Source: Deltaproteobacteria bacterium
GTDB lineage: Bacteria; Myxococcota_A; UBA796; SXON01
Direction of reading: 5' to 3'
Length of the DNA: 64,000 nt
NCBI GenBank assembly: GCA_014191855.1
Contig: BJHF01000016.1
Location: 11,020-75,019 of the forward strand
The notes beneath the pieces are model-generated. The model saw only the letters and a list, made by a program, of their open reading frames with translations. It was not told where the DNA came from and searched no databases. Made by a program: the position numbers and the translations under genes. Numbering within the stretch: position 1 is the first letter of the stretch; each line of letters opens with the position of its first letter. Positions 17,579-50,508 of the stretch are shown here, in pieces.

Positions 17579-18568
17579 ATGCTGCCGCTCCTCCTCGCCT
17601 GCGCCCAAGCCAAGCTGTCCGTGGATGGCGCGGACACGGGAAAAGACGACCCGATCCTTGGGGATTCTGCGGACACGGCGGACAGCGCCGACACCGGCGA
17701 AACCGACGAGCTCGTGTACGATTGCGCCGCGCTCCCGCAGCTCGGGGACATCGAGGACAATGAGCTGGTTGGGCCCCGCGCGTACCACGACGTGATCTTC
17801 GACGACGCCGGGAACCTGCTCGGCACGGATGGCTCGTCGATCCTCAAGTCCACGTACGCCGGGGCGGTGACGCCGTTCGTTCCCGGCCTTGGCACGGTGC
17901 AGGGCATGGCGCACCTTCCCGACGGGGACATCGTGGCGGCCGACGACACTCAGGCAGCCCTCCTCCGCATCGGCGCCGACGGCGCGGTGAGCACGATCGC
18001 GACGGGCCTGTCGGGGGCGTACGGGGTCACGGTCGGCCCCGACGGCATGGTGTACGTGGGAAATATCTACAACGGCGGGCGCGTGGAGATGGTTCGGGTC
18101 GATCCCACGACGGGCGAGTCGGCCACGTGGCTCACGATGCGGGCGGGAGAGTCCCCGCGAATGGTGGTGTTCTCGGTCGACAACACCGTGGGGTACATCG
18201 CCACCGTCGGGCGTATGCGGGTCTATGCCGTGGACCTCGACGCCGACCTCAACGTGGTGGGCGACGCCCGCGTGTACGCCGACAATGTGGGCGCAGGCTG
18301 GCAGGACGGGATTGGCCTGGATGCGTGCGGGAACCTGTACGTACCCGACTACTCCTCCTCGTCGATGTACCGCATCACACCCGATGGCACGGTGGAGGAC
18401 CTGATGCGCCACCGCGCCGGGATCTACGGACACGGCCTGGAGTGGGGCAGCGGCATCGGCGGGTGGCGAACCGACGCGATCTACCTGCCGCAACCCTACG
18501 ACGGCTTGACCGTGCGGGAGCTGGTGATCGGCGTACCCTCGGCCGACACGCTCCGCACTGGACCGTAG
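17579..18568 (+). CDS. SMP-30/gluconolactonase-like beta-propeller lipoprotein, 329 aa
   Basis: MLPLLLAC, acidic linker, propeller repeats (GVTVGPDGMVYVG, DGIGLDACGNLYV). Confidence 0.8.
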   Translation: MLPLLLACAQAKLSVDGADTGKDDPILGDSADTADSADTGETDELVYDCAALPQLGDIEDNELVGPRAYHDVIFDDAGNLLGTDGSSILKSTYAGAVTPFVPGLGTVQGMAHLPDGDIVAADDTQAALLRIGADGAVSTIATGLSGAYGVTVGPDGMVYVGNIYNGGRVEMVRVDPTTGESATWLTMRAGESPRMVVFSVDNTVGYIATVGRMRVYAVDLDADLNVVGDARVYADNVGAGWQDGIGLDACGNLYVPDYSSSSMYRITPDGTVEDLMRHRAGIYGHGLEWGSGIGGWRTDAIYLPQPYDGLTVRELVIGVPSADTLRTGP

Positions 18569-21207
18569 GGGCGCTGCGAGAGCCACGCTTCGAACTCGGT
18601 TGGCGGCATGGCTTTGCTGTAGAGCCACCCCTGGGCCTCGTCGCAGCCGATCGTCGTGAGGAAGGCTGCCTATTCCTGGGTTTCGACGCCCTCGGCGATC
18701 ACCTGCAGGCGCAAGGACTTGGCGAGGCTCACGACGGCCTGGGTGATGGCCGCCGCGTCCGCATCGTGGAGCATCTCGCGGACAAAACTCTGGTCGATCT
18801 TCAGCTTGTCGATGGGAAATCGCCGCAGGTAGGCGAGCGAGGAGTACCCGGTACCGAAGTCGTCGATGGAGAGGTGCACCCCGAGCTCCCGGAGCGCGGC
18901 GAGGGTGGTCGCCACGGTGCTCGCCCCGTCCATGACCACGCTCTCCGTCACCTCCAGCTCCAACAGATGCGCCGGAAGGCCCACCGCGGCGAGGGCCTCG
19001 CGCACCTTATCGACGAAATTGGCGGCACGGAACTGGATCACGCTGATGTTCACCGCCACCACCACCGGCCGGCCGGCGTCCAGCCAACGCCGAGCCTGGC
19101 GACACGCCTCGCCGAGCACCCAGTCGCCCAGCGGTACGATCAGCCCGCACGCCTCCGCCACCGGGATGAACGTCACCGGAGACACCGGCCCCCACTCGGG
19201 GTCGGTCCACCGTAGGAGCGCCTCTACCGCCGAGCATCGATTCACCGCCAGCGAGATCTGCGGCTGGTAATGCAGCTCAAGGCGCCCCTGCTCCATCGCG
19301 GCCCGCAAGCGCGACTCGGTGGCGATGCGCTCCGTCGCGCGCGCATCCATGGCGGCACAATAGGTGGCCACGTTTCCGTGACCGAGCCCCTTCGCCTGGT
19401 TGAGCGCCGACTCCGCGCTCTTCAGAAGGTCTGCGGCCGTGATTCCGTCGCTGGGATACTGGGCGATCCCAACACAGGCGGTGAGCGGGAACGGGGAGCG
19501 GAGCGAAGCGGCACCCGGTACCACGACGTGGACGAGCTCGTTGGCCAGCTCCCGCACCTTGGCCATCGGCGTTCCCGACGCCAAAAGGACCAAAAACCGC
19601 TCTCCCCCGAACCGGGCGAGCGTGGCGCCAACCGGGACCGCGAGCTGCAGTCGCTGCCCCACGTCGGCCAGCACCATGTCACCCGCGGCGTGGCCGACCG
19701 TCTGGTTGATGACCATGAACCGGTCGATCCCCACCAGCAACACCGCGAGGCCGGCGGTCGCGCACACCTCGATCTCGCTCGTGAGGCGCGCCTCGAAGCG
19801 TGTGCGGTTCGCGAGCCCCGTCACCGCGTCGAAGTTGGCGAGGTTCTCGATCCGCGCTTCCGCGCGGCGCGTTTCGGTGAGGTCGGCCGAGATGCCGATG
19901 TAGTGGGTGGGGCGCCCTTCGGCGTTGCGTACTTCGGTAATCGAGAGGCGCACCGGGTAGGTTTCCCCGTTCTTCCGCCGATCCCAGAGCTGCCCCTCCC
20001 AGTGGCCATCCCGCGCGAGCACCGCACGCATCTCCTGGTAGTAGCTGGCGTTTTGCAGCCCCGACTTCAGGATGCGGGGCGTTTCCCCGAGGAGCTCCGC
20101 CTCCGAGTAGCCGGTCATCGCCTGGAACGACCGGTTCACCCTCAGGATTCTCTCGTTGACATCCGTGATGATCACCCCTTCCCGGGTGTCCGCAAACACC
20201 TGCGCCGCAAGCGAAACCTCGTCTTCCAGGCGTTTGCGCTCCGTGATGTCCGTCGTGATTCCGATGACCCGCACCACCTCGCCGCGCCGGTTGCAGACCG
20301 CCGAGGCCGCCACCTCCAGCCACCGCAACGCCCCATCCCGTCGGTAAATCCGGAAGGTCGAAACCACGGTTTCGCCTGCGGAGCCAATCCCCGCCACCTC
20401 CGCCTGCACCCGGCCCGCGTCCTCCGGGTGAAGCTGCCGCAGCCAGACCGACGGGTCTGCCCTGAACTCCACAGCGGGAATCCCGCAGATCTCCTCGATC
20501 GCCGGGCTGATGAAGTAGCAAACGCGCAGCGTCGGATCGCCGATCCAGATCGCCTCGTTCATCGCCCCCAGCATGTCCTGGAAACCCTGCTCGGTCTCCG
20601 CGAGGCGCGCCTCGGCCGCTCGCTGCTCCGTGAGATCACGCATCACGGCCAACCTCGCCGCCCGGCCGCGATGGATCACGTTGCGCCACGAGATCTCGAC
20701 GTTCAGTCGCTGCCCGTCCTTGGCCTGGTGGATCCACTCTCCCGCATTGAAGAGCACGTCGCGCTGGGTCGGCGACGTTACAAACCCAGCCTCAAACTTT
20801 CCGATCTCACTCTCCGGTCGAACTTGCCGAACGGTAAGCGCACGAAACTCCTCCCGCGAGTAGCCGTAGCGAGCCACCGCGGCCTCATTCACCTCAAGGA
20901 TGCGGAGGTCGTCGATCGCATACACCCAGGCCGGCAAGGGCGAATCATCGAACAGTCGGCGGTACTCCCGCTCACCAACGAGCGCCGCCTCATGCGCCGC
21001 CTCCATCCGCCGACTCCACCGCGTCAACAGCATGAGCAGTCCCAGCCCGGTGATCACGACAAACAGGGAGCCCTTCCAGGTGCTCACCAGGACCAAAAGC
21101 GGCGTAGATCCAGCCGTCAACGCCGCAGCCACCCGATCGGACGCGGCAATCCACACCAATCCCAAGAGGACGTAGAGGCTCGCAATCCGAAAAGGGGTGT
21201 TCAACAC
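18496..21207 (-). pseudogene. 2TM-PAS-PAS-PAS-GGDEF(degenerate)-EAL phosphodiesterase interrupted by an in-frame TAG at 18670-18672
   Basis: PAS/PAC motifs, GGERF, EALLRW, DDFGTGYSS, EGVETQE-stop-AAFLTTIGCDEAQGWLYSKAMP; start codon uncertain. Confidence 0.8.
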
Positions 21208-21304
21208 GACCAACCAGCGTATCGGTCGGCCCTTAACGAACTGTGGCCGAATGCCGCACGCTCTCGTGTCAACGCGCGGTTGGTACGATGCCTCACGAAG
21301 CCCC

Positions 21305-21351
21305 TTGCCGCACCCCCGGGGCACCGGCTACATGAATGACCATTCATTCAT
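21305..21351 (+). promoter_or_regulatory. Putative sigma70-type promoter overlapped by a TetR/FadR-type palindromic operator
   Basis: TTGCCG (21305) and TACATG (21329); ATGAATGA-CCAT-TCATTCAT at 21332-21351. Confidence 0.7.
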
Positions 21352-21364
21352 TCCTGGGGGATCC

Positions 21365-23185: not shown

Positions 23186-23198
23186 GGGCGGCCCGCCC

Positions 23199-24970: not shown

Positions 24971-25063
24971 GGGAACCTCGGGGAGGACGCTACATAACGG
25001 GCGGGGCCGCGCAGTCTGCGCGCAGGTGTGGAGGCCCCGACGCCCCGGCGCTATGCTGCGGCG

Positions 25064-26308
25064 ATGCTCGCCTTGCTCCTCGCCTGCTCCACCGAAGCGC
25101 CCAACCCTGAACCGGGGGACACGGCGCCGGTAGAAAACCCCGACACCCTCCCGGGAACGGAGGACACGGGCGAGGCGCCGGACTCGGGGATCGACGAAGA
25201 CGACACGGCCGACGACCCCGAGCTCGAAGCCGCCGCCGCCGAAACGTTCTACACCTTCGGCGTGCTCCAGGAGGTGCGCCTCGCGCTGACGCAAGAGACC
25301 ATCGACGCCCTGGACAAACAAGCCCGCCGCGGGGAAGCCGAGTATCTATCCGGAGATGTAACGATCAACGGAACGGCGTTCACCAACGTAGGGGTGCGGA
25401 TCAAGGGCTCCTCCACGCTGCGCAACTTCGACGACAAGCCCTCGCTGAAGATCAAGCTCAACGCCTTCGTGCCCGATCAGGACTACGCCGGGCTCGAGCG
25501 GATCACGCTCAACAACATGGTGGAAGACAACACCCAGATGAAGGAGGTGATGGTCTACAAAATCTTCCGCGAAGCCGGGATCTACACCTCGCGCGCGAAC
25601 CACGCCGCGCTCTACGTGAACGATGAGCTGTACGGCCTCTACACCAACCTCGAAACCATGGATGACCACTGGTTGGAGGCCCGGTATTCCGATCCGAGCG
25701 GCGAGTTGTTCGAAGCAAACGACAACGCCGACTTCACCCGGAGCGGCGTCGCCTACTGGGAGAGCGCGAGCGGCACCGGGGACACGACGCAGCTCGACGC
25801 CGTGTCCGACGCCATCCGCGGGGCGGGCGCCAACTACGCCGACGACCTCCGGCTCTACGCCGACATGGACCAGTTCTACGCCTTCTGGGCCTGGAGTCTC
25901 CTCGTGGGCGATGTCGACGGCTACCCCTACACCCTCAACGACTGCTACGTGTACGCCGACCCGGCGGATGGCAACCGCTTCCAGTTCTACCCCTGGGGCG
26001 TAGACGAGAGCTGGTACTCCGGCGCGCCCGGCTACTGGAACTACGCCACAGGCGCGCTGGCCGCCGGGTGCCTCGACAACGACACCTGCAAAGCCGAGTT
26101 CGTCGCGAGCATGGAGGCGCAGCTCCTCGTGTATGACACCCTGCCGATCGCCGACTGGTACGCCGCCGACGCCGCCACGTCGGCGGCCACCCTCGCCGCC
26201 GACCCGCGCCGAACCTTCAGCCAGTCCACGGTCGCCAGCGCTCGTAGTCAGCTCCTCGCCGACATCGCCGCGTGGCCGGGCCGCATCCGCGAGGCGATGC
26301 GGCTGTAG
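25064..26308 (+). CDS. CotH kinase-family lipoprotein, 414 aa
   Basis: MLALLLAC; VGVRIKGSS, KPSLKIKL, LNN..D, YGLY..LE, PWGVD. Confidence 0.85.
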   Translation: MLALLLACSTEAPNPEPGDTAPVENPDTLPGTEDTGEAPDSGIDEDDTADDPELEAAAAETFYTFGVLQEVRLALTQETIDALDKQARRGEAEYLSGDVTINGTAFTNVGVRIKGSSTLRNFDDKPSLKIKLNAFVPDQDYAGLERITLNNMVEDNTQMKEVMVYKIFREAGIYTSRANHAALYVNDELYGLYTNLETMDDHWLEARYSDPSGELFEANDNADFTRSGVAYWESASGTGDTTQLDAVSDAIRGAGANYADDLRLYADMDQFYAFWAWSLLVGDVDGYPYTLNDCYVYADPADGNRFQFYPWGVDESWYSGAPGYWNYATGALAAGCLDNDTCKAEFVASMEAQLLVYDTLPIADWYAADAATSAATLAADPRRTFSQSTVASARSQLLADIAAWPGRIREAMRL

Positions 26309-26327
26309 AGGCGCGTTACACGCGAAC

Positions 26328-26690: not shown

Positions 26691-26718
26691 GCCGACTCAG
26701 GGCTTCGCCGCGCCCGCC

Positions 26719-27861
26719 CTACTCCTCGATCGTCGTCTCAAACAGCCCCGCCAACGCGGTGTGGCCGGCGTCGTTGGGGTGGAAACACGACTCGTCGAAG
26801 TACAATTCGGTGTCCGGGCCGCGGTAGCAGACGTTGCTCGCGTCGGCCCGGTTGTACCCGTGCCCGCAGAAGGTCTCGCCGAGGAAGATCATGTCGGTGT
26901 TCGTGTCCACCGCGATCCGCAGCATCTCCTCCTGCATCCAGGCGATCCGCTCCTCGATGCTGGGGTTTGCGAGATCGTAGTGGTACCCCACAAAGTCGGC
27001 GCCGGGGCAGGCATCTACGTCCCCTTCGCCGTCGGTGAACTCGTAGAGGTTGGCGAACACCACGTACATCTGGCCGGGGAACCGAGCCTTGTCCGTCGTG
27101 ATCCAAGTCACCGCGTCCCGCAGGTTCTGCATTTCCTCTTCAGTGGAGGCGATCAGGGTTTCGTCGGGGATGCCTTCATAATAATCATCGGCCAACGAGA
27201 ACAGATCGTTCCCGCCCACGGTCATCACCACGAGCGTCGTAAGGCCTGCCTTGTCCTCGGGGATGCAGTCGATCACCTGGTCGTTGTCCTGCACGAGGTC
27301 GTCGGTGCGGCCGCCGTACTTGGCGCACACCGCAAAGTCGCCCGACTCCATCTCGTACCCGGTGCCGTTGAGCACGTCGTACCAGCCCCAGAGGTACTCG
27401 GGCGCGTCGAGACCCCACTTGGCCACCGCCCAGGCGGTAACCTGGTTGCGATAGAAGGATTCCACCGTGTTCGGCGGCGTACCCACCGTTACGCTGTCCC
27501 CAAGAAACACCACCCGTTCAACGCCTTCGATCTCCTGGTGGTCGGTGCCCGTGCAGCCGGTATTGATCGTCGCCCCGACGGAAAAATAATCCGGCGTGTC
27601 GGGGAAGCCGTTCCCCAGCGCCAATCGCTCCAGGCAGGTCAACTCCTCCACTTCGCCGCTGTCGGCGGTATCCGCGCTGTCGGCGCTCCCCGCGGTGTCG
27701 CCGCTGTCCACCGACTCCCCCGTTTCGCCCGCTGAAGAATCGCCAGTGTCCACCGAGGCGGTGTCGCCGCTGTCGGCCGCGGCCGAGTCCACCCCCGCCA
27801 CCGCATCGGCAGGCTCCGCGTCGTCTGGACAGGCAAAAAGGGCCAACATGAACGGGATCAT
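26719..27861 (-). CDS. SGNH/GDSL hydrolase lipoprotein, 380 aa
   Basis: LALFAC lipobox, D/S/T-rich linker, GDSVT, GGND, FHPNDAGH. Confidence 0.85.
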   Translation of the reverse strand: MIPFMLALFACPDDAEPADAVAGVDSAAADSGDTASVDTGDSSAGETGESVDSGDTAGSADSADTADSGEVEELTCLERLALGNGFPDTPDYFSVGATINTGCTGTDHQEIEGVERVVFLGDSVTVGTPPNTVESFYRNQVTAWAVAKWGLDAPEYLWGWYDVLNGTGYEMESGDFAVCAKYGGRTDDLVQDNDQVIDCIPEDKAGLTTLVVMTVGGNDLFSLADDYYEGIPDETLIASTEEEMQNLRDAVTWITTDKARFPGQMYVVFANLYEFTDGEGDVDACPGADFVGYHYDLANPSIEERIAWMQEEMLRIAVDTNTDMIFLGETFCGHGYNRADASNVCYRGPDTELYFDESCFHPNDAGHTALAGLFETTIEE

Positions 27862-27914
27862 GGCGCCGAGTCTACCGCCTCCTTGCCCGCTGTTTCAAGG
27901 GGCTCCGAGCCGAA

Positions 27915-28793
27915 TCAACACCCGCACACACACATCCCGAATTGCGAAAGCGCCCGGCTCGAACCGTCGGGCGCCACGAGGAACTCCCCGCCCCACCACG
28001 CCAGCCGCAGCTCCGGGAGGTGGTCGCCATCCGTGTCCACGGCGCCCACGATCTCGGCCAGATCGTCGCGTTCGTGCTTGAACAACACCGCCCCGTCGTC
28101 GGCAACGGCTACGATCCACCGGGCGTAGAACTCGTCGCCGCCGCAGTAATTCCGCCCGTCGCCGCTCATCACGGCCGTGTCCACCACGGTCACGGCGCCG
28201 AAACCAAAGACGTAGCGATCAACCTGGGTGCTCTCGGCGGTGTCCACGCCAGCCGCCACCGCTGCGTCGGCGGCGGCGGCCTGGGCGGCGGCCCATTCTG
28301 GCAACGAACGGACCACCGCTTCGGCCCGGGCAGCCTGCTCATCCACCACCCGCTCGCGCGTCGGCGCGAGAATCGCCGGCGCCAACCCCGGATTCGCCAG
28401 CTCCTCGCTGGTCTCCCCCTCACAACGCAGGCGCGCGTACAGCAGCGGGGTCCCGCACCCGGGCGCCGTGGGCGCCTCGATCCGGTTCCCCTCCCCGTCC
28501 ACATAAACATCCAGATACTCTTCGACGACCGCCGCATATCCGTCTACCCGGCACTCCACATCGCCCACCCGCCACGCGGTGCCGATCGCCCGCGTAGCAT
28601 CGACGTCCGCGGTGCTCGCCACCCATTGATCCGGGCCGGTCCCAACCTGCGCCCAGTCTCCGCTGGGCGTCGCGCCGCCCAAACCCACCAGGTAGTCGCG
28701 ACCGGCCAGGGAAACGACGCGCGCCGGATCGGCCTCCACCGGGACCGGGGGTTGCAGGCCCCGATCGTTGCAGCCGAGCAAGAAAAGCACCAT
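27915..28793 (-). CDS. Hypothetical lipoprotein ending in CVCGC, 292 aa
   Basis: MVLFLLGC start 8 nt after the upstream stop; Cys-rich C-terminus. Confidence 0.7.
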   Translation of the reverse strand: MVLFLLGCNDRGLQPPVPVEADPARVVSLAGRDYLVGLGGATPSGDWAQVGTGPDQWVASTADVDATRAIGTAWRVGDVECRVDGYAAVVEEYLDVYVDGEGNRIEAPTAPGCGTPLLYARLRCEGETSEELANPGLAPAILAPTRERVVDEQAARAEAVVRSLPEWAAAQAAAADAAVAAGVDTAESTQVDRYVFGFGAVTVVDTAVMSGDGRNYCGGDEFYARWIVAVADDGAVLFKHERDDLAEIVGAVDTDGDHLPELRLAWWGGEFLVAPDGSSRALSQFGMCVCGC

Positions 28794-28801: not shown

Positions 28802-29653
28802 CTATCCGCCCTTGGCCGCACCCGCCTTCACCGGCTTCTCGAAGATCCACGTGGCCGCCGCCTGGAGGTTGGGCACGGTGCCCACGCGGTCATTGTCGAT
28901 CACGTAGGCGAGCGCGAGCACGTTGATGGTCGGCACCGCGGGCGTGATCCCCGGCTTGAAGGACACGATCCCGCCGACGGTGAGGCTGCGATCGCCGGAC
29001 TCCAGCGCCATGCGATCCCGCACCGTCGCCCCCACGCGGAACAGGGGCTTCGTGCCGCCCGGGAGCACCTCGTAGAGCAGGCCGCCCTGGTTCTCCACCA
29101 ACACATCGTCCCAAGCCACCACGAGATCGCGGTTCGGCTCGTAGACGTACGGCGCTGCGAGGCCATCCGGGTTCTCCAAGTGCAACATGCTGAACGAACA
29201 CGCGTCGAAGATCACGATCGGGCCCAGCTTGGCTTTCACCGTGGGCGTCGCGCTCAGCACCAGCCCGCTCCCGCTGAAGCCCTCGTCCTCCCGTGCCTTC
29301 CGCTCGTCCGTCCCCTTCCCGGAGGTCTCGTCGAACGGCAGGAGCCCCCGTCCGCCCCAACTGTAGTAGCCAAGGTAGCTGGCCTGGACTTCGAGATCGA
29401 ACACGTCGATGGGGGAGATCGAGAGCCGCGGCCCCACCTCGGCGTTCACGGGCGTGAACACCACCCGGAGGCCGGCGCCCGCGTAGGTGTCGTGGAACAA
29501 CCGGCTCTCCGAGCGGTGGAGCGGCACGCGGTACTGCGCGCGGGTATCCACCTGTGCGCCCTCCGGGAACAGCGAACCGCCGACCGACTGGCGCAGCCAC
29601 CACGAGGGTGCGTCGAGGGCGAAGGCGGCGGAGGCGAAGAGGGCGAGGAGCAT
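28802..29653 (-). CDS. Secreted protein, probable outer-membrane beta-barrel, 283 aa
   Basis: Short signal MLLALFASAAFA; alternating amphipathic strands; aromatic-rich final strand. Confidence 0.65.
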   Translation of the reverse strand: MLLALFASAAFALDAPSWWLRQSVGGSLFPEGAQVDTRAQYRVPLHRSESRLFHDTYAGAGLRVVFTPVNAEVGPRLSISPIDVFDLEVQASYLGYYSWGGRGLLPFDETSGKGTDERKAREDEGFSGSGLVLSATPTVKAKLGPIVIFDACSFSMLHLENPDGLAAPYVYEPNRDLVVAWDDVLVENQGGLLYEVLPGGTKPLFRVGATVRDRMALESGDRSLTVGGIVSFKPGITPAVPTINVLALAYVIDNDRVGTVPNLQAAATWIFEKPVKAGAAKGG

Positions 29654-31363: not shown

Positions 31364-32190
31364 GCGTGCGCGTTCCGCAGGAACAGTCGAGGCAAGGCGG
31401 CGGCCGCGCCGGTCGTGGCGAGGATGCCTGCCAGCAGCACGAGCGCCGTGGCCGCCGCCCGCGCGCTCCCCCCGGGAACCTCCACGGCGAGGAGGTACAC
31501 GTGCACCGCGAGCACCCGACCCGGATCCAGCAGCCCCTCGGGCATTCGGGTTGAAGCGCCAGCGGTGAACAGGAACACCGCCGACTCCGCCATCACCCGA
31601 CCGGTCGCCAACACCAGCGCCGCTGCGATGCTTGGGGCAGCCTGCGGCAAAAGCACTCGTCGAAGCAACATCCAGCGCGGCAGCCCCAGGGCCAGCCCGG
31701 CCGCCCGGTAGTCATCGGGAACAGCGCGGAGGCCGGCTTCGCACAGCCGCACGAACAACGGCAGGATCATCATCGCCACGGTGAGCCCGCCCGAGAGCAC
31801 GGACCACCCCAGGCCGAGCGTTTCGCAGAAGAACGCCAATCCGAAGAGCCCGTAGACGACGGACGGAACCGCCGCGAGCAGGTCGAGGGCGCCCCGCACC
31901 GTTCGGAGCCCGGTGCGCCCAAATTCGGCAAGGTAAACGCCGGCTGCGAGGCCCACTGGCAGCGCCGCGCCCACTCCGATGAGCAGCACCCACCCCGTGG
32001 CCGCAAGGATGGAGGCAATGCCGCCCGAACGGCCTGCCTGGCTCGGCGACTCGGTCAAAAAGCTCCGGTCAATCTGCCCCAAGCCGTCCCACGCTACGTC
32101 AACCACGATGGCGGCCACCAGCCCCACCACCAGGGCCGGCGCAAGGCCAAGGGCCAAGGCCGCGAAGCGGTCACGGGTGCGCGCGGTCAT
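31360..32190 (-). CDS. pstA: Phosphate ABC transporter permease
   Basis: LAAVPSVVYGLFG, EAA-like loop, ATGA overlap, operon context. Confidence 0.9.
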   Translation of the reverse strand: MTARTRDRFAALALGLAPALVVGLVAAIVVDVAWDGLGQIDRSFLTESPSQAGRSGGIASILAATGWVLLIGVGAALPVGLAAGVYLAEFGRTGLRTVRGALDLLAAVPSVVYGLFGLAFFCETLGLGWSVLSGGLTVAMMILPLFVRLCEAGLRAVPDDYRAAGLALGLPRWMLLRRVLLPQAAPSIAAALVLATGRVMAESAVFLFTAGASTRMPEGLLDPGRVLAVHVYLLAVEVPGGSARAAATALVLLAGILATTGAAAALPRLFLRNAHA

Positions 32191-33023
32191 GCCCGTCGGT
32201 GCTCCAAGGCCAGAATCCCGGCGACCAACGCGAACAGCAGCGCCGCCGAAACAAACAGCGCCGAGCGGTGCAGATCCATCGCATACGCCATTTCCACCGC
32301 GACGTTTCCCGTGAGCGTACGGAACGCGGTGAACGGGCCCGTCGGGTACTGCACGGTGTTCCCGGCCACCATCAGCACCGCCATCGTTTCGCCTACGGCC
32401 CGGCCCAGCGCCAGCACGAGCCCGGTGCGGATCCCGCGCGAGGCCATGGGCAACACCACGCCCCGAGCGCCGTCCCAGGCACCCAACCCCAGGGCCCGTA
32501 CCGCGCGGATTCCATCCGTAGGCACCTGCTGGATCGCCGCGTCAATGGCGGAGGCGGCAGTGGGCAGCACCATCGCGGCGAGCGTTACGACGGTTACCCC
32601 CAGCCCGAGGCCCGGCGGGTGATCCCGCACCAGGAGGGGCACCAGCCTAGTGAGCGCAACCAGGCCGAACACCACGCTCGGGACCCCGGCCAAGAGCCCC
32701 ACGCCGGCACGTGAAACCGCCGCCAAGCGCGGCCCGGCGAAGAGGTTGACGTGGAGGCCGTACGCTACCGCCACCGGCCCCACCAGGATCAACGCCGCGA
32801 TGCTGGACACCAAGGTCCCCGCGATCATCGGGAGCAGGTTGTACTGGCCAGAGGGCGGCGCCCAGCGGGAATCCATCACGAAGGGGAGCCCCCCCGTGGC
32901 GCGGAGGGCAGGCCACGCCTGAACCCCCACAAAAACAGCGATCAAGCCTGGGAGTACGACGGCAATCCAGCTTGCGGGGCGGAGCGCGGCGGCGAAGGTC
33001 GCGTCAGCGAGCGGCCGTCGCAT
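32187..33023 (-). CDS. pstC: Phosphate ABC transporter permease
   Basis: LAGVPSVVFG, GRAVGETMAV.MVAGN. Confidence 0.9.
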   Translation of the reverse strand: MRRPLADATFAAALRPASWIAVVLPGLIAVFVGVQAWPALRATGGLPFVMDSRWAPPSGQYNLLPMIAGTLVSSIAALILVGPVAVAYGLHVNLFAGPRLAAVSRAGVGLLAGVPSVVFGLVALTRLVPLLVRDHPPGLGLGVTVVTLAAMVLPTAASAIDAAIQQVPTDGIRAVRALGLGAWDGARGVVLPMASRGIRTGLVLALGRAVGETMAVLMVAGNTVQYPTGPFTAFRTLTGNVAVEMAYAMDLHRSALFVSAALLFALVAGILALEHRRA

Positions 33024-33846
33024 TCCCCACCGCCACAAAGTCCTCTTTGGCCACGATGGCCTGCCCGTCACTCGAGAGCACGAAGCCGATGAAGTCGAGG
33101 GCAGCGCCCGCGGGCGGCCCCTTGGTGACCAGGTTCAACGGGCGCATCAGCGGGTACGAGCCGTTGGCGACGTTCTCCACCGAGGCCATCACCCCGTCGA
33201 GCGGGAGGCGCTTGATCGTCGCCCCCTCCGCTTCCGCGACCGCGGCCGAGCCGATCGACACGTAGGCGATCGCGTGCGGGTTGCCCGCGACGGTCGTGAT
33301 CGCCTGACCGTTCGGTCCGATGATCACGGCGCCGGGCAGGATCTTGTCCTTGAGCCCGAAGTGATGCTCGAACAGCTCGAGCGTCGAACGACCCTGCTCT
33401 TTGTTCACCACCGTGATCGCGTGGTTCTCCCCGCCCAGCGCGCTCCAATTCGTCGCCGCCCCGGTGTAGATCGACACCACCTGATCGCGCGTGATCGCCG
33501 AAACCGGATTGCTGGCGTGAACGACGATCGCCACCCCGTCCAGGGCGATCGTGGTCGCCGTCAGGTCCCCCTCCTCCGCCTTCAGCGCGCGGCTCACCGT
33601 GCCCACATCCGCGAGCCCCGAGCGAGCCGACGAGATCCCCACCGCCGAGCCGCCGCCCTGCACATCCACACGCACGTTGGGATGCAGCTTCTCGTAGGCC
33701 TGCCCCGCGATCTCGACCACGGGCTGCACCGTGCTGGAGCCCGCCAGCGTGAGCTGCATCACGGTCTCCGGGGCCGCGAACGAGGCGCCATCGGAGCGCG
33801 CGCTCGCGGGTTCCAAACTGCAGGCGAGCAGAACGAGCGCGACCAT
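33004..33846 (-). CDS. pstS: Phosphate ABC transporter substrate-binding lipoprotein
   Basis: MVALVLLAC; GSSTV, GGGSAVG, IALDG, GSYPLMRPL. Confidence 0.9.
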   Translation of the reverse strand: MVALVLLACSLEPASARSDGASFAAPETVMQLTLAGSSTVQPVVEIAGQAYEKLHPNVRVDVQGGGSAVGISSARSGLADVGTVSRALKAEEGDLTATTIALDGVAIVVHASNPVSAITRDQVVSIYTGAATNWSALGGENHAITVVNKEQGRSTLELFEHHFGLKDKILPGAVIIGPNGQAITTVAGNPHAIAYVSIGSAAVAEAEGATIKRLPLDGVMASVENVANGSYPLMRPLNLVTKGPPAGAALDFIGFVLSSDGQAIVAKEDFVAVGNATAAR

Positions 33847-33930
33847 CGAGCTTCCGGGGCAGCAGGCGTGCGCGGTCGAAGCGGTCAGCCGCTCATATGC
33901 GCCCCGCCGCATACCACGAACTCCCCGCCG

Positions 33931-38144: not shown

Positions 38145-38692
38145 CCATGCTGCCCCTGCTCTTCGGGTTCACCGGCTGCGGCGAAGAAGCCGCGCTTGGG
38201 AAGGACGCAGCGGACACCGCCCCGCTCCCATGCGACGAGCGCCCAGCCTCGGTGGCGATCGGCGGAAGCGGAACCGACGAGCTTCAACGTCCGATCTGGA
38301 CCGAGATGCCGGAAGGCAGCGAGCAGACCATGGTGCACGGGCCCCAGGGGGGCTGGCACATCCTCGCCAGCGCCGACGTGCAGAGCACCGACGACATCGT
38401 AACCATCGAGTACACGATCACCTGGCCCGCGCGCGCCGACGCCCAGCTCAGCTACGGCAGCTTCCGCGTGATGCTCGTGCCCGACGCGCGTTGTGGCGGC
38501 TACTACGCCGGGATGCTCGGCATCCTCGACGTGAGCGATCTCGCCTCGGGAGAAGCGGATACGCCCCCCGAGCTGCTGGCCGGCGAAACGCTGAGCCTCA
38601 CCATGAACGTCATCGACCTCAACGGCCTCACCGCCTCCGACGCCGTGAACATCGTCGCGGCGCTCGACCCGGATGATGTTCCCGTCGAGTAA
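38141..38692 (+). CDS. Hypothetical lipoprotein with HGPQGGWH motif, 183 aa
   Basis: LLFGFTGC lipobox; GTGA overlap with the SDR gene. Confidence 0.7.
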   Translation: MTMLPLLFGFTGCGEEAALGKDAADTAPLPCDERPASVAIGGSGTDELQRPIWTEMPEGSEQTMVHGPQGGWHILASADVQSTDDIVTIEYTITWPARADAQLSYGSFRVMLVPDARCGGYYAGMLGILDVSDLASGEADTPPELLAGETLSLTMNVIDLNGLTASDAVNIVAALDPDDVPVE

Positions 38693-39971: not shown

Positions 39972-40007
39972 GGGCGGGCTCGGGTGGAATGGCGTACTAT
40001 CGGAGCC

Positions 40008-41117: not shown

Positions 41118-41121
41118 GTTT

Positions 41122-43958: not shown

Positions 43959-43967
43959 GGGGACTCG

Positions 43968-45608
43968 TTAGTCACGCCGACGACGGCGGACAAGCGCCAG
44001 CGCCAGGGCGGTTCCGGACAACGACACTCCAAGACCGGTGGAGCAGCCGCCCGCTGTCGTGTCAGCCACACCCGAATCGCCCTCGGCCGCGGACGTGCGC
44101 CGCGTGGGGCGAAACGTGCACGCCCCATCGGCTTCGTCGGCTTCCCCGTCGTCAACCAGCCCGTCGCAGTCGTTATCGTACCCATCGCAATACTCGCGCG
44201 CGGCGACGAAAACCCAGGGATCCTGGTCGTCGCAATCGTTGAGCAGCGGGTCGGACTCCACGTCTTTGAACGTGTCGGCGTCATCGTCGTAGGCCGGGCC
44301 GCCTTCGTCCACGATGCCGTCGCAGTCATTGTCGCGACCGTCCACCACCTCTTCGGCCTCGAGGCCCACGAGCGTCTCCGCGTCGTCGCAGTCGCCATGC
44401 AGCTCCGTCCACCCGTCCCCGTCGTCGTCATGCCCCTCGGTGCTCTCGTCGATCTGCCCATCGCAATCGTCGTCAATCTGGTTGTAGACCTCGGTCATGT
44501 ACGGGCCGACGTTGGGATCGGCGTCGTTGCAATCCTGATCACCGCCGCAGTCGCCACCGCTCTCGCTGCAGCCATCGGCGTCGTCGTCGTTGCCCACGGT
44601 GTCATCGTCCAGCTCGTCGATCTCGCCGTCGCAATCATTGTCTTCGAGGTCGTCGGGCGCTTCGTTGGCCGCGGGACTGGTGTACGCGTCGAGGTCGTCA
44701 CAGTCACCGCCGCACACGGTCCAGCCGTCGAGGTCGGCGTCCCAATCCACGGCGTCCAACGAGCGATCGCAGTCGTTGCCCACGAACTCCACGGCGGCCG
44801 CGGCAAGGCTCTCGCTGTTGCCGGTGAAGGTGACGTGCGCCGAAACGGGCTCCGCTGAGGCCACGGTCCAGCCGATCACCACCTCTTCCGTTTGCCCTGG
44901 GAGCACGTAGAGCGGCGGCAAGGTTCGCGAGGACATCCCCGCAAAGTCCACCTGGATCGACGACACCGTGAGCGGCACGATTCCGCAGTTCACGATCTCC
45001 ACCGAATCGCTGAAGTCGCCATCGATCGCGCTCGTGCGATCTCCGAAGTCCACCATCTCCGGGAAAACCCGACCGCAGGCATAGTCGGAGAGGCCGCGAA
45101 GCTGCACGCGCCACACCGTCCAGATCGTCTGTTCCTCCTCCGGAAGGTCCTCCTCCCCCGGCAGCGGCGCCTTCTCTTCCGAAGTGTTGTCGTTCGACCA
45201 GATCGTGAGGATCCCCTCGTAGTAGCCCTTCACCGTCGGCGCGAAAACCACGGGGAGCGGGAGGGTGTCGTCCTCCGAGTCGGGGTCGTAGCCCAGCAGA
45301 TCGAGGCAATCGGCGGCCCCGTCGTCGTCCGAATCACAGTCGACCGCCCAGGAGGAATCGTCCACGAGGAATGCCGGCGCGGCCGCACCCTCCGGAGCGC
45401 TGATGTCCTCCGCCAAGATCTCGAAGATCTCGACTTTCCCCCCGGCTTTCGAGAACAGGGGAACGGTGAACACGCTGCGGTCGCCAACGGCCACGGCCCC
45501 GGCGTCCACGTAGGAGAAGCCGTCGAGCACGCGATCCTGGGCTGTGAGCTGCCGATCGTTGTCGCAAGCCAGCAGCAGGATCGGCACGAGCAGGGGAACG
45601 CGGCGCAT
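43968..45608 (-). CDS. Surface protein with Ig-like domains, MopE-like repeats and MYXO-CTERM-like tail, 546 aa
   Basis: LLLAC lipobox; four DCDD-type units; GGCST-hydrophobic-RRRRRD C-terminus. Confidence 0.85.
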
Positions 45609-45643
45609 TGCCGCGGCAGCATACGCCCGAACGCACCCGCGCA

Positions 45644-47161
45644 TCAAGCCCTGCGCGTCACCTGATCGAGCGTGTCCTTCGTCTTTCGGTAGAGGAACCG
45701 GGCCTGCTGCCAATTATCGCCGATGCACACGAGGCCCAGCTTGCCAAACTCCGAGAGCGCGCCGATGAGGTGGAACACCACGCCGCGTTCGGAGCTGGAG
45801 TGGAAGTGCAGCTCGTGCTCCACCGCCAGATCCACGAGATCGGCGGGGCCGAGCCCCTTGTAGGCGTCCGACTGCAGGCTATCCGAGGCGTAGTAGAACT
45901 TGGGACGACCGGTCTGGCTGTAGAACAGCCCATCATCCACGTTGTAGGTGCCATCCGTGAGAAACCGGAGCGTGAGAAACGGGTGGGTCGTACCGCCCTT
46001 GCGCAGGTTTACCTCGATGGCGTGATGCTTCCACTCGCCGTTCTCCTTGACGGAGACAAAGTCAGTCGCGAACCGACCTATTACGCCCTTTCCGGCCAGG
46101 ACTTCCGCGATGCGCAACCCGTATTCCTGGATCTGGAGCCGGTAGGCATCCGCCGCCGGGAACGTACAGCCGAGGAACACCTGGCCGCTCGGACCGCCGA
46201 GCACCTGGTCGTGCGTGGAGATCGCCATCGCCTCGCCGCGGGCGTTCACCCGGTTCTGCGAGGATGGAGAACACTTCTCCGCGCCCTCCACGAACGACTC
46301 CACGACGCCCTGCATTTGCTTGAACTTCGCGTGGTAGCGCTCCCAGTGCTCGCCGGGGGCTTCGAACCGCAGGTTCGGGAGCCGCTCGCGCACCCACGAG
46401 CGCAGATCGGCGCCGCGGAGGTCGTCTGCGCCGTCGAAGTAAAAGAGCGCGTTTCCCTCTCCCGAGAACCCGTCGTTGAGCTTCACCACGGCGCGCCGCC
46501 GGGAGCCGTCGCGCTCGCGGAGCACCGAGAGCGCTTCTGCGATGTCCTCGCCGTCCCGCAGGTCCTCGAAGCCATCCGGGAACAACACGCCGGCTTCGCG
46601 GAAGATCTTCCGGCAGCCGGACTTGGTTCCCAGGCTGTACAGCGCGGGATCGTTCGCATAGAGCGGGATGCCGAGCTGCACGGCGAGGGAGCGTTCGTAC
46701 TCCGAGCTGTTGAAGCAAACGAGGTGCGCGAGCTCCGGATCGGGGATCGCGGCGCGGATCCGCTCGATCAGCCTCGGCCGCTTGAGCACCTTCGCCGAGA
46801 GCGGCTGCTTGCTGGCGTCGGAGCAGTGCAACAGCAGCAACCGCTCGCGCGCATGCGACGAGGGCACGCCCGTGAGCAGGTGCAGGAAGTAGTCGACAAC
46901 GATGGGATCGAGCTGCTGGCTGGTGACGAACACCACGCGAGTGCGCGGACGCCGTAGCAACATCAGCATGTAGAGCATGCGTTCTTCGTAATGATGAACG
47001 CCGGTTACCTTCGCCAGCTCCTCGGGATCGAGCGAGAGGCTCGGGATCACCACGACCGTTTGCTCCTGCGTGCGCCGCGAGGTGACCTTCGAAAACAGCG
47101 CGGGCAGCCGCGCCTGGATGGCGTGGAAGGCGAGAATCTCTTCGGGGGAGCCAGGCTGCAT
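45644..47161 (-). CDS. PGM1-related ATP-grasp peptide ligase-like protein, 505 aa
   Basis: HYEER, GTKSG, VVKLNDGFSGEGN, SPS, STHDQ.LGG, IEVNLRKGGTTHP. Confidence 0.8.
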   Translation of the reverse strand: MQPGSPEEILAFHAIQARLPALFSKVTSRRTQEQTVVVIPSLSLDPEELAKVTGVHHYEERMLYMLMLLRRPRTRVVFVTSQQLDPIVVDYFLHLLTGVPSSHARERLLLLHCSDASKQPLSAKVLKRPRLIERIRAAIPDPELAHLVCFNSSEYERSLAVQLGIPLYANDPALYSLGTKSGCRKIFREAGVLFPDGFEDLRDGEDIAEALSVLRERDGSRRRAVVKLNDGFSGEGNALFYFDGADDLRGADLRSWVRERLPNLRFEAPGEHWERYHAKFKQMQGVVESFVEGAEKCSPSSQNRVNARGEAMAISTHDQVLGGPSGQVFLGCTFPAADAYRLQIQEYGLRIAEVLAGKGVIGRFATDFVSVKENGEWKHHAIEVNLRKGGTTHPFLTLRFLTDGTYNVDDGLFYSQTGRPKFYYASDSLQSDAYKGLGPADLVDLAVEHELHFHSSSERGVVFHLIGALSEFGKLGLVCIGDNWQQARFLYRKTKDTLDQVTRRA

Positions 47162-47188
47162 CGCGCCAATCATAGCAGCACAGCCCGC

Positions 47189-48622
47189 CTACGAGGCGCC
47201 GCGCCCCGTAAGGACCACCGGGAAGGTCTTGAGGATGAGCTTGAGATCCAGGAACAACGACCAGTTGTCGATGTACTCAAGGTCGAGTCGCATCCACGAA
47301 TCGAAGTCCACCTTGTTGCGCCCGTTCACCTGCCACAAACAGGTGAGCCCCGGGCGCATCGACAACCGGCGCATCTGCCACCGTTCGTAGCGCGCCACCT
47401 CGGCTGGCAGCGGGGGCCGCGGGCCGACGATGCTCATCTCGCCGCGCAGCACGTTCCAGATCTGCGGCAATTCGTCGATGCTGGACTTCCGGAGGAACGC
47501 GCCGATCCGGGTGATCCGCGGATCGCGCGCCATCTTGAACACGGGGCCGTCCATCTCGTTCTTCGCTTCGAGCGCCTTGCGTTTCTCTTCCGCGTCCACA
47601 CACATGGATCGAAACTTGTACATCGGGAACGAGCGCCCGTAGAGCCCGCTTCGTTCCTGCGAGAAGAACACCGGACCCCGATCCTCGATCTTGATGAGCG
47701 CCGCCGCCAAAAGCATGATCGGCGAGAGCACCACCAGGCCCCCAAGCGCGACCACCACGTCCACCGCCCGCTTCACCAGCAGCGCGGTGCCATCCGAGGG
47801 AACGGACGAGAACGACAGCACGCTCCAGCCGCCCAGATCGTTCACGTCGGCGCGCGCGATGGAGAGCCCCAGGAAGTTGGCGTCCATCGAGAAGGTTACG
47901 CCGACCTCCTCGCAGCGATCGGCGACGAAGCGGAGCGTAGCCGTGTCCCACGCACGCCCGGTCATGAACACCTGCGCGATGTTCTCCCGGGCCACGATGT
48001 CGGTGAGCTGCTGGATACGACCGAGCACGCGCACACCGTGCACGCTCGTCACGTCTTCGCCGTCTGGCACGAGGACGCCCGACACCCGGAGGCCCCACTG
48101 CGGATGGCGCAGCACGGTATCCACGAAGGGCGCCGCTTCGGCGGCCCCGCCGATCACGAGGATGTTCCATGTAGGAGCACGCTTACGTGCGCTCCGTGCC
48201 TCGTAGCGACGCGCGAGGAACAACGTTCCGATGCTTACGACCGCGAACGCCAGCAGGAAGGAGCGGGACGTCGGAACGGCCGGCGGAAACAAGAACAAGA
48301 CGACGAGCAGGAGTCCGAACGCGAACAGCACTGCGCTTGCGATCCGGAGCAGCAGCACGTCTGAACGAATGCGCCGAATGTCGTCGTAGAGCTGGTGCTG
48401 CGTGAGCGAGAAGAGCCAGAGCGGCACCACCGCGAACACGAGATGGAACTGGCTTTGCACGGTGACGGGCGCCATCAGCGGCGCCCCGGGCAGCACATCG
48501 AACGACCAGAGCTCGCGCGCACGCTGGCGCAAAAAAGCGACGATCAAGAACGTGATCCCGACAACCACCGCGTCCGTTACGCGGGCGAGCCAGCCCAGAG
48601 ATGCGGCGTGGACCTTCTGCAT
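47189..48622 (-). CDS. Polyprenyl glycosylphosphotransferase (WcaJ/WbaP-like sugar transferase), 477 aa
   Basis: KFRSM, DPRIT, DELPQ, GEMSIVGPRP, PGLT..WQ, D..YI; four N-terminal TMs. Confidence 0.93.
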   Translation of the reverse strand: MQKVHAASLGWLARVTDAVVVGITFLIVAFLRQRARELWSFDVLPGAPLMAPVTVQSQFHLVFAVVPLWLFSLTQHQLYDDIRRIRSDVLLLRIASAVLFAFGLLLVVLFLFPPAVPTSRSFLLAFAVVSIGTLFLARRYEARSARKRAPTWNILVIGGAAEAAPFVDTVLRHPQWGLRVSGVLVPDGEDVTSVHGVRVLGRIQQLTDIVARENIAQVFMTGRAWDTATLRFVADRCEEVGVTFSMDANFLGLSIARADVNDLGGWSVLSFSSVPSDGTALLVKRAVDVVVALGGLVVLSPIMLLAAALIKIEDRGPVFFSQERSGLYGRSFPMYKFRSMCVDAEEKRKALEAKNEMDGPVFKMARDPRITRIGAFLRKSSIDELPQIWNVLRGEMSIVGPRPPLPAEVARYERWQMRRLSMRPGLTCLWQVNGRNKVDFDSWMRLDLEYIDNWSLFLDLKLILKTFPVVLTGRGAS

Positions 48623-48661
48623 CGTCGGCGTTGTATCGCGCCAGGAGGGTAAGCGGTCGCG

Positions 48662-49630
48662 ATGTGGTTGCTCGCCGCCTCCCCCGCCTGGGCGCACCGT
48701 CCGGGCCTCTCGTACGCGCGCATCGGCGACGACGCGCTCGCCCTTACTTTCGCGCGCCCGGAGCTGGCCGGGGCGCTACCCGCCGGCGGGGAGCTGGAGG
48801 CCTCGCGGCTGCTCGTGGGCGAGCTCCTGCTGGAGGGCACATCCTTGAAGGTGAACGATCAGGCATGTGAATTCGGCGATCCGACGCTGCGATCCGTGGA
48901 GGGAGACGGCGTTGAGCTGACGGTTTCGCTCGATTGCCCGCACGGGGAACGCATGTACGAAGCTGGCTTCTTCCCGAGAATGGAGGCCGGCCACCGACAT
49001 TACGTCGAAGCCGAGGGCGCCGCCGTCGCCGTGCTCGACGCCGCCCACACCTCCGTCGCTATCGTCGGAACGCCCGATCCGTGGACCGTCGCGGCGCGCT
49101 TCGGCGCCCTCGGCGTGGAGCACATCTGGACCGGGTACGACCACCTCCTGTTCCTCTTCGGGCTCTTGCTCGCCGCCAAGGGGCTCCGGGCGATGTTGCT
49201 CGTGGTAACCGGCTTTACGGTCGCCCACTCCATCACCCTGAGCCTCGCGGCGCTCGGCTGGGTGCACCTCGCGCCCGCGGTCGTGGAGCCAGCAATCGCG
49301 GCTTCGATCGTGTTCGTCGGCGTTGAGAACCTCTGGAAACCAACGGCTGCGCGTCGGGCCGTCGTCACCTTCGCGCTCGGCCTCGTACACGGCTTCGGCT
49401 TCGCGGGGATGCTACTGGAGCTCGGCCTGCCGCGCTCCGCGCTGGTCGCCGCGCTCGTGAGCTTCAACGGCGGCGTGGAGCTGGGCCAGGCCGCGATCGT
49501 CGCCCTCATTCTTCCCCTTTTGCTGCTGCTGCGCCGCGCGCCGTGGTGGGAGCGGCGCGCCGTTCCCCTGCTCTCGGCCGGCGTCGCACTCGCGGGCCTC
49601 GTGTGGTTCGTGGAGCGGGTGTGGGCCTGA
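48662..49630 (+). CDS. HupE/UreJ-family protein, 322 aa
   Basis: AWA-H start, HIWTGYDHLLF, FTVAHSITL, GLVHGFGFA. Confidence 0.9.
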   Translation: MWLLAASPAWAHRPGLSYARIGDDALALTFARPELAGALPAGGELEASRLLVGELLLEGTSLKVNDQACEFGDPTLRSVEGDGVELTVSLDCPHGERMYEAGFFPRMEAGHRHYVEAEGAAVAVLDAAHTSVAIVGTPDPWTVAARFGALGVEHIWTGYDHLLFLFGLLLAAKGLRAMLLVVTGFTVAHSITLSLAALGWVHLAPAVVEPAIAASIVFVGVENLWKPTAARRAVVTFALGLVHGFGFAGMLLELGLPRSALVAALVSFNGGVELGQAAIVALILPLLLLLRRAPWWERRAVPLLSAGVALAGLVWFVERVWA

Positions 49631-49671
49631 GCGCGCGGAACCCGCCCTCCGCGCAGCTTGTCCCGCGGGCG

Positions 49672-50508
49672 ATGCTCTCGCTCCTCCTCGCCTGCGGCAC
49701 CCCCGCGGCCGCGCCCGATCCCACGCCGTCCTCCCCTGAAGCGGCGGTTTATCTCCCAACCCCCACCCCGGCTGCGCCGACATGGCCGGCGGCCGGCGCC
49801 CCCCTCCAGGTTCTCCCTCCCCTGTCGGCCGGCGCCCGCCCAGTCCGCCTCGTCATCGACGCTGGCCACGGCGCCCCCGGAAACTCAGGCAACACCTCCG
49901 TGCGCTGCGAAGCCGAGGCCGACTTCACGCGCCGCGTGCAGGACGAGCTCCTGGCCCGCCTCGCCAACGCTCCCGAGCTTGAGGTGCGCTCCGGCCGCCC
50001 CTCCGCCGCGCTCCTCGACTACGGCAGCCGCATCGCCGCCTTCAACGCCTGGCCTGCCGATGCCGTCGTGAGTCTGCACTCCGACGCGCGCGCCGCCGAC
50101 AACCTGAGCATCCATCCCAGCACCGGGTGTTGGTCCTCAACCGGCGCCTCGGGCTTCACCGTCCTGTTTTCCGACGAGGGCCCGCCCGATCTGGCACGGG
50201 CGCGCCGGCAGCTTGCGGAAGCGATGTCCCGTGAGCTGCACGGCGCCGGTTTCGTACCGTACGCCGCCGGCTACAGCGAAGAGCTCTACGGCTCAATCGG
50301 CGCCGGCGTGTACGTCGATCGTCATCCCGTCGGAAAGCGCATCCGAATGCTTCGCGGCACCAAAGTCCCGACCGTCATCGTCGAAACGCACCAGGCCTCC
50401 GACGCCGAGGAGACCGCCCGCTGGGCAGAGCCCGCCACCCTCGATGCGTTTGCCGCCGCAATCCGACGCGCAGCCGTCGCCGCCGCGGTAGAAGGGCCCC
50501 ATGGATGA
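49672..50508 (+). CDS. N-acetylmuramoyl-L-alanine amidase (Amidase_3) lipoprotein, 278 aa
   Basis: IDAGHG, E, SLHSD, VIVETH; MLSLLLAC. Confidence 0.85.
   Translation: MLSLLLACGTPAAAPDPTPSSPEAAVYLPTPTPAAPTWPAAGAPLQVLPPLSAGARPVRLVIDAGHGAPGNSGNTSVRCEAEADFTRRVQDELLARLANAPELEVRSGRPSAALLDYGSRIAAFNAWPADAVVSLHSDARAADNLSIHPSTGCWSSTGASGFTVLFSDEGPPDLARARRQLAEAMSRELHGAGFVPYAAGYSEELYGSIGAGVYVDRHPVGKRIRMLRGTKVPTVIVETHQASDAEETARWAEPATLDAFAAAIRRAAVAAAVEGPHG

Follow-up and report, generated by a model that had tools for sequence, protein, structure and literature searches.

How short can a signal for protein export become, and can it do without any positive charge? The question is raised by a window of 64,000 nucleotides (G000:C16:11020-75019) in a deltaproteobacterial metagenome-assembled genome (MAG) of 6.95 Mb, 329 contigs and 68% GC, for which completeness is 93% and contamination 4%. 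Nine genes in this window appear to encode proteins that begin with a few hydrophobic residues and run directly into either a lipidation-type cysteine or a site of the kind cleaved by signal peptidase (SPase) I. The original prediction was that this lineage exports and lipidates proteins with signals of only 7-10 residues, and that either an atypical recognition by Sec, Lgt and LspA or some other route must be involved. The short starts and the lineage-wide pattern have stood up: the sequence evidence strongly supports that the proteins truly begin with the short leaders and that the whole lineage shares the trait. Export and lipidation by such signals are deduced from this pattern. Hundreds of predicted export and lipoprotein substrates of this uncultured freshwater myxobacterium, and of its relatives, start with about 7-12 uncharged residues, around half of what textbooks give. 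We consider it likely that the leaders are genuine Sec signals, used with both SPase II and SPase I, that have lost their n-region; a relaxed, prl-like SecY may be what tolerates them.

All nine N-termini read in the sequence as they had been described, and none of them contains Lys or Arg. On the forward strand, MLPLLLA-C (17579..17602) opens the gene for a gluconolactonase/SGL-like beta-propeller lipoprotein (17579-18568), MLALLLA-C (25064..25087) that for a CotH-family lipoprotein (25064-26308), and MLSLLLA-C (49672..49695) that for an Amidase_3 lipoprotein, an N-acetylmuramoyl-L-alanine amidase (49672-50508), while the SPase I-type leader MWLLAASPAWA-H (48662..48694) belongs to a HupE/UreJ-domain protein (48662-49630). 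On the reverse strand, MIPFMLALFA-C (27829..27861) precedes a GDSL-lipase-like lipoprotein (26719-27861), MVALVLLA-C (33820..33846) a PstS-like phosphate-binding lipoprotein (33004-33846), and MVLFLLG-C (28770..28793) the product of gene 27915-28793, whose start codon is 8 nt past the end of the gene upstream. The two remaining reverse-strand leaders are of the SPase I type, namely MLLALFASAAFA (29618..29653; gene 28802-29653) and MILLFGAALA-G (58027..58056; gene 56938-58056). Pfam matched six of the nine carriers (SGL-type propeller, CotH, GDSL lipase, PstS-like PBP, HupE/UreJ and Amidase_3) and gave no match for the genes at 28793, 29653 and 58056; the PstS-like PBP, CotH, Amidase_3 and GDSL lipase assignments agree with the expectation that the carriers act outside the cytoplasm.

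Short leaders across the genome and the lineage

Genes were called as stop-to-stop open reading frames (ORFs) of at least 100 codons, which were scored by codon log-likelihood, with long ORFs as the training set, and selected by greedy non-overlap, giving 4567 ORFs that cover 84% of the genome. Any ORF that ran off a contig end or had an N close to its start was excluded from the counts. The lipobox tested was [LVI][ASTVI][GAS]C with the Cys at +1, and a leader is referred to as stop-limited when its length is taken to the Cys from the most upstream ATG, GTG or TTG that follows an in-frame stop. Starts of the Met-hydrophobic-Cys type, whose recurrence in the window had prompted the prediction, are enriched at first start codons throughout the genome: a charge-free leader of 6-13 residues followed by a lipobox Cys is found in 217 of 4368 predicted genes (5.0%), compared with 136 of 105059 internal start codons (0.13%) and 53 of 29949 ORFs in rejected frames (0.18%).

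The PROSITE rule PS51257 places the cysteine of a lipoprotein at residues 15-35. A lipobox-like motif lies near the N-terminus of 688 ORFs of this genome, and 268 of these have a stop-limited leader of no more than 13 residues, leaving a maximum possible length of 6-13 residues (re-runs of the pipeline returned 266/688 and 269/694). The modal length among the 268 is 8; 265 are free of Asp and Glu, and 218 are free of Lys and Arg and so lack the positively charged n-region of Sec/SPase II signals. The lipobox itself is of the Sec/SPase II kind, and its Cys is conserved among orthologues. Leu occupies position -3 in 175 of the 268 leaders, and position -1 is Ala in 181, Gly in 80 and Ser in 7, proportions that are not set by the filter, which pre-selects only the box.

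The leaders fall into two classes when first-start leaders are divided with Lys or Arg (K/R) allowed at residues 2-5. Those without K/R number 37, 70, 41, 20 and 24 at lengths of 7, 8, 9, 10 and 11 residues, with a mode of 8, whereas those with K/R number 13, 24, 30, 20 and 14 at lengths of 12, 13, 14, 15 and 16, with a mode of 14. Even though K/R was allowed, it occurs in only 6 of the 174 leaders of 7-10 residues, and the K/R-bearing leaders keep 9-12 uncharged residues between the charge and the Cys. The bimodal pattern, in which charge goes with length and its absence with shortness, represents a concrete and testable geometric rule.

The DNA of relatives was put through the same pipeline, and the comparison is one of small samples outside the source genome (74-400 kb) and of kin that are not independent of each other. 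The source genome has 269 of 694 lipobox ORFs stop-limited to at most 13 residues, with a median upper bound of 14 among ORFs limited to at most 30; the same genus (G010) has 18/46 with a median of 13, and other genera of the family have 5/12 with a median of 11. Within the same order, the corresponding values are 7/18 and 13 for G025, 3/14 and 15 for G076, 3/13 and 16.5 for G029, and 1/14 and 15.5 for G027, amounting to 14 of 59 leaders for the order. None of eight leaders is this short in the same class (median 23), and the same phylum gives 0/11 in G041 (median 24) and 1/18 in G063 (median 19), a total of 1/29. Leaders without K/R, counted among ORFs limited to at most 30 residues, make up 249/539 in the source genome, 15/33 in the genus, 4/8 in the family, 14/46 in the order and 1/21 in class plus phylum. 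The outgroup leaders are canonical, with MKRKVFLGLTILLLALFAG-C and MKKNWMFLLVVLLTLLLAVG-C as examples. The short-leader trait is derived stepwise, from phylum and class to the order and then to the family.

Probable Sec signals and the lipidation machinery

The conventional enzymes of export and lipidation are complete in this genome, which encodes one SecY, one Ffh, two S26 signal peptidases, five Lgt, two LspA and two Lnt over Pfam cut-offs, and nothing was found in it that points to another route of export. As to the suggested atypical recognition by Sec, Lgt and LspA, SecY differs at the position of Escherichia coli I187 throughout the order, while Lgt, Lnt, SPase I and Ffh match their families. 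The NxGAAF, GNFIDR and FNxAD motifs, with the two catalytic Asp residues, are intact in both LspA copies. Both also contain an insertion of about 12 residues, relative to solved LspAs, just before the second catalytic Asp motif. One lspA adjoins lgt on contig C31 (G000:C31:48078-49345 (-)), and the other locus is G000:C95:19401-19862 (+). The multiplicity of Lgt was considered as a lineage-specific adaptation and rejected, with 1-6 copies present across 60 genomes of the phylum; because multiple Lgt are common in the phylum, Lgt copy number does not explain the trait.

Leaders of the SPase I type are also found in short form. Six of nine genes with a Plug domain, of the TonB-receptor type, have charge-free leaders of 8-15 residues, such as MLLCLAAALA before ADP and MILALIQLAFA before EE; two have canonical long leaders with K/R, and one, on contig C118, has a leader of 16-19 residues with Arg just before the cleavage site. 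The leaders of eight orthologues of the 29653 protein end in small-x-small right before the mature start, as is characteristic of an SPase I site. A genome-wide SPase I heuristic is weakly enriched (117/4368, versus 1.2% at internal starts, or 2.3-fold) and still yields many clean cases, including MFPIAAAYA before EE; the case for short SPase I leaders is built on the orthologues and the Plug genes. A further Plug gene feature was noted at the upstream end of the ORF G000:C14:23185-23520 (-), where a hydrophobic TIFVFLA lies between a TGA and the sole start codon, a GTG. It is the only case seen in which hydrophobic sequence continues upstream of the presumed start, and it hints at a non-canonical start, read-through of the TGA or a recent truncation.

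Of the competing explanations, the one that survives best accepts the short N-termini as real and denies that they are cleaved Sec/SPase II signals. The proteins would instead carry uncleaved stubs, inserted by YidC or spontaneously, and their Cys would be unmodified, or modified in a non-standard way by an extra Lgt paralogue. Seven uncharged residues are indeed too short to span a bilayer, and the canonical rule places the Cys at 15-35. The five Lgt and two LspA paralogues, together with the insertion in both LspA, could be read in the same sense, but many genomes of the phylum have multiple Lgt, those with canonical leaders among them, and the catalytic motifs of LspA are intact. The lipobox statistics are canonical, the carriers are typical periplasmic or surface proteins, and the parallel shortening of SPase I leaders points to a shared Sec step. 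On this evidence we judge the explanation improbable and prefer genuine Sec signals.

Start codons of the short leaders

The next explanation to be weighed is that the starts are mis-assigned, so that normal-length leaders arise from upstream GTG, TTG or non-canonical codons, or that long and short forms are both made. Coding potential begins at the short start: over the 40 in-frame codons upstream of it, the codon log-likelihood ratio is about -0.2 per codon and the GC content of third codon positions is 0.64-0.68, compared with +0.36 and 0.87 for the first 10 codons from the short start. An in-frame stop lies fewer than six codons upstream in 116 of the 268 short-leader genes, and the stop-to-start distance spikes at three codons (63/268). 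The stops at that distance are TAG in 41 cases, TAA in 20 and TGA in 2, though TGA is the commonest among all upstream in-frame stops (TGA 130, TAG 95, TAA 43), and the signal is therefore the dinucleotide TA at -12/-11, which is present in 86 of the 268 genes versus 1-17 at other offsets.

TA at -12 corresponds to the position of the -10 hexamer for a transcript that starts at the ATG, and suggests that these mRNAs may be leaderless. The motif TANNNT starts at -14..-10 in 53/268 genes versus 3-19 in shifted windows, and Shine-Dalgarno (SD)-like cores are found at -15..-7 in 75/268 (about 28%) versus 11-38. Both kinds of motif, the -10-like and the SD-like, are in register with the short start. 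The TA signature is commoner in the charge-free class (67/198) than in the K/R class (21/120). In the window, the -10-like boxes that had been placed 6-7 nt 5' of three of the leaders are all present: CATAAT (17566..17571, forward strand) is 7 nt before the ATG of 17579 in a leaderless-type arrangement, TATGCT (25052..25057, forward strand) is 6 nt before that of 25064, and TAGACT (27869..27874, reverse strand) is 7 nt before that of 27861. Read in frame, TATGCT gives a Y, and Y also stands just before the Met in six listed CotH homologues.

Alignment of orthologue N-termini shows that the short leaders are kept, and no upstream start is present in the orthologues of the ambiguous genes. The PstS orthologues of the same genus begin MITLLLLA-C, MIPLLLLA-C and MSLALLFFA-C, with stops 6-8 codons upstream, and the CotH orthologues begin MVALLLC-C, MLPLLTLLA-C, MWVVVLLG-C and VIFLLAA-C, the last two with a stop three codons upstream. 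Amidase_3 orthologues of the same order begin MLSLLLLLA-C and MLLVLVALAA-C. Eight orthologues of the 29653 protein retain a charge-free leader of 10-12 residues that abuts a conserved mature N-terminus of the D-x-P-x-W-W type.

Four of the nine cited genes leave no room for longer leaders. Those at 27861, 29653, 48662 and 58056 have no ATG, GTG or TTG between the in-frame stop and the Met; the stop precedes the Met by 13 codons at 27861, by 9 at 29653 and by 4 at 48662, and for 58056, which has no in-frame stop within 50 codons upstream, the ATG is the first start according to the ORF list. An additional leader in the window, MLPLLFGFTG-C (38147..38179, forward strand; gene 38147-38692), has a maximum of 12 residues, from GTG 38141. 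The stop that was reported 8 nt upstream of 28793 exists (28802-28804), but it is the stop codon of the upstream gene and is out of frame.

Other observations count against accepting every short start. The remaining five cited genes have a longer in-frame start, and for each of them, taken singly, a longer leader stays within reach: GTG 25028 would give the 25064 protein a 19-residue leader containing two adjacent arginines (RR), and ATG 33912 would give the 33846 protein a 30-residue leader beginning MRR; 28793 has in-frame starts at TTG 28796 and GTG 28850; and 49672 has GTG 49543, which overlaps the upstream gene. The ORF of 17579 opens at 17288 but overlaps ubiD, the gene itself beginning 14 nt past the ubiD stop (17563-17565), and in three genomes the open frames of its orthologues are just 340-344 residues compared with the 329-residue protein. 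Furthermore, 420 of the 688 lipobox ORFs have room for a leader longer than 13 residues, an in-register -10-like or SD-like motif is present in only 125 of the 268 short-leader genes, and the gene calls and lipobox filter are heuristics of our own that admit some membrane proteins. The hydrophobic stretch upstream of the C14 Plug gene would also fit a longer leader. The same pipeline applied to outgroups, however, yields only 1 short leader in 37, and in view of this and of the coding, positional and orthologue evidence we regard mis-assigned starts as very unlikely.

The RR-bearing in-frame stretches that precede two of the short leaders (MEAPTPRRYAAA... at 25028-25063, and MRRGAYERL... at 33847-33912 on the reverse strand) look like relics of a former n-region that are now overlain by a -10 box. 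If so, they suggest that leaders became shorter when an internal Met took over as the start.

An artefact, whether of assembly errors, contamination or a non-standard code that reads through the upstream stops, can be set aside even for a 329-contig MAG that is 93% complete and 4% contaminated, as contigs from the runs of three other studies match the start regions of 25064, 27861, 28793, 29653 and 33846 without indels, every genome sampled from the family shows the pattern, the upstream stops include all three stop codons, SecY and other genes are intact under table 11, and the upstream region is without coding signal.

The SecY pore ring and relations to known systems

What might allow a translocon to accept such signals? 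The SecY of the source genome (G000:C5:49099-50445 (+)) shares 68-93% identity with that of uncultured MAGs from lakes, which are labelled Deltaproteobacteria or Myxococcota bacterium. It was aligned with others, 105 of 109 sequences being used after four partial ones were dropped, and positions are given in E. coli numbering through this alignment. The pore ring comprises what we take to be six positions: I82, I86, I187, I191, I278 and I408. The residue at the I187 position is Ser in the source genome and all 22 close relatives, and is Ala in four and Ser in two of the six genomes of the same order; the genomes with Ser include G010, G012, G018, G029 and G022. Among 77 other SecY the position is Ile in 56, Met in 9, Ser in 5, Ala in 3, Thr in 3 and Val in 1. 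Neither Ile nor Met is found in five sequences of 56-60% identity, which probably belong to the same order, in seven Bdellovibrionota, or in a MAG labelled Caulobacterales, which has Val. Ile predominates at the five remaining ring positions, and I82 is Val in some sequences.

Other differences in SecY were seen. The position of E. coli F286, often Ala in the genus, is Ala in the source genome and in 14 of 22 close relatives. SecY of the order has Thr, Ala or Ser at F192 and Val at A79, and that of the source subclade has Asn at V411, a position where Gly is usual among bacteria.

Substitution at the pore ring, the plug, or transmembrane segment 7 or 10 is the hallmark of prlA-type alleles, and Ser or Ala at I187 is a change of this type. 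I187 is described as a member of the isoleucine ring, with prlA alleles at I191, I278 and I408, and the ring alleles are considered to make the channel open more easily and thereby let altered signals through (PMC2171872). A cell-free screen from 2026 found that diverse pore-ring substitutions gave 'super-active translocators', with log2 translocation values in data S1 of +2.45 for I191S and +2.79 for I408S (PMC13537251). The likeness to the E. coli prlA (secY) alleles thus lies in the substitution of a pore-ring isoleucine; here, unlike in E. coli, the change is natural, is fixed in a whole order and falls at position 187, and its phenotype is predicted. No prl allele at 187 is mentioned in the portions of the literature consulted, where only a 'superactive' I187M appears.

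Several points speak against a causal role of this residue. Among the rows listed from the cell-free screen, the variant at 187 is I187M, with a log2 value of +0.47, and I187S is absent (PMC13537251). The link between SecY and leader length rests on essentially one evolutionary event. Within the order, the contrast between Ala and Ser at 187 does not separate leader lengths, as the counts of leaders of at most 13 residues are 7/18 and 1/14 in G025 and G027, which have Ala, and 3/14 and 3/13 in G076 and G029, which have Ser; G085 contributes a single lipobox ORF. The Bdellovibrionota, with Ser or Thr at 187, were considered as an independent replicate, and their leaders are 12-21 residues long and K-bearing, with none that is ultra-short, although slightly shorter than in Ile-bearing Myxococcota, which supports the link weakly at most. 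Substitution of I187 is consequently not sufficient. That the pore-ring change underlies the tolerance of minimal signals is therefore offered as a tentative hypothesis, one that may prove right but which we hold with less than even confidence.

With leaders of this kind acting as Sec signals, the signal would consist of a Leu-rich hydrophobic h-region, with Met1 as its first residue and the lipobox or an AxA site following at once. Preproteins would pass through SecYEG, Lgt would add the diacylglyceryl group, and LspA or SPase I would cleave as usual, while a relaxed, prl-like pore ring may lower the threshold that a signal has to reach. An uncharged leader, having no positive anchor, could slide to the outer leaflet, the site of Lgt and LspA action, without spanning the membrane. 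Such unanchored sliding would explain why charge is found only where about 9-12 uncharged residues precede the Cys. An acidic mature N-terminus was also entertained as compensation for the absent n-region and was dropped: residues +2..+21 have a net charge of -2.66 versus -2.18 in random 20-residue windows, and an acidity that barely exceeds that of the rest of the same proteins, in a genome whose proteins are acidic throughout, lends the proposed reading no help.

A stronger version of this idea is that the charge-free 7-10-mers form a distinct, unanchored class of Sec signal, made possible by a SecY with relaxed proofreading (I187S/A) and coupled to leaderless mRNAs. The Met would possibly be formylated, and the whole leader would partition into the periplasmic leaflet. 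This version is rather doubtful, but if true it would mean that an entire exported proteome can do without the n-region and half of the h-region.

The signals are of a known kind, being Sec signals for SPase I and SPase II, and what is new, and surprising for a specialist in protein export, is their extreme shortness across a proteome. With the canonical Sec/SPase II signal of the E. coli Lpp type they share a Leu-rich h-region, the lipobox L-[ASL]-[AG]-C and an encoded Lgt, LspA and Lnt, and the carriers are likewise binding proteins, amidases, lipases and surface proteins. They differ in having no n-region, an h-region of 6-8 residues, and the Cys at residue 7-12 rather than at about 15-35. 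Removal of the positive charge at P2 in two E. coli model proteins showed that export does not strictly require such a residue at the N-terminus (Zalucki et al. 2007, PMC2034453). Those E. coli signals stay full length, whereas here the n-region and about half of the h-region are gone across hundreds of genes. The putative leaderless mRNAs would share with those of Deinococcus deserti a -10 element immediately 5' of the start codon, which places the transcription start at the AUG or beside it (PMC4007540); in the present genome the signature comes from positional sequence statistics and is enriched in the charge-free class.

An n-region and about 15 or more residues are presupposed in textbooks and in predictors such as the PROSITE lipobox rule and SignalP. 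If a whole lineage gets by with 7-10 uncharged residues, the lower limit for recognition by Sec, Lgt and LspA would have to be reset, and standard annotation would badly under-predict the exported proteomes of such MAGs or mis-set their starts. The pore-ring substitution would likewise represent a natural experiment on proofreading by the translocon. The region rules of SignalP 6.0 require a minimum n-region of two residues (PMC9287161), and the papers reached by literature searches contained no report of proteome-wide ultra-short signals in a lineage of this type.

Some minor features of the window and its genes can be added. The mature N-termini that follow 27829, 17603 and 25088 consist of long, low-complexity linkers rich in D, T, G, P and E (for example DTGDTADSADTGETDE), after which the folded domain begins. 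The CotH family is strongly expanded, with 15 matches in the source genome and up to 21 in one relative (E<=1e-20), and several of the copies inspected have short lipoprotein leaders. Finally, at window position 32057, among the ORFs between 31360 and 33071, the contig of another study is one base shorter, reflecting either a strain variant or an assembly error.

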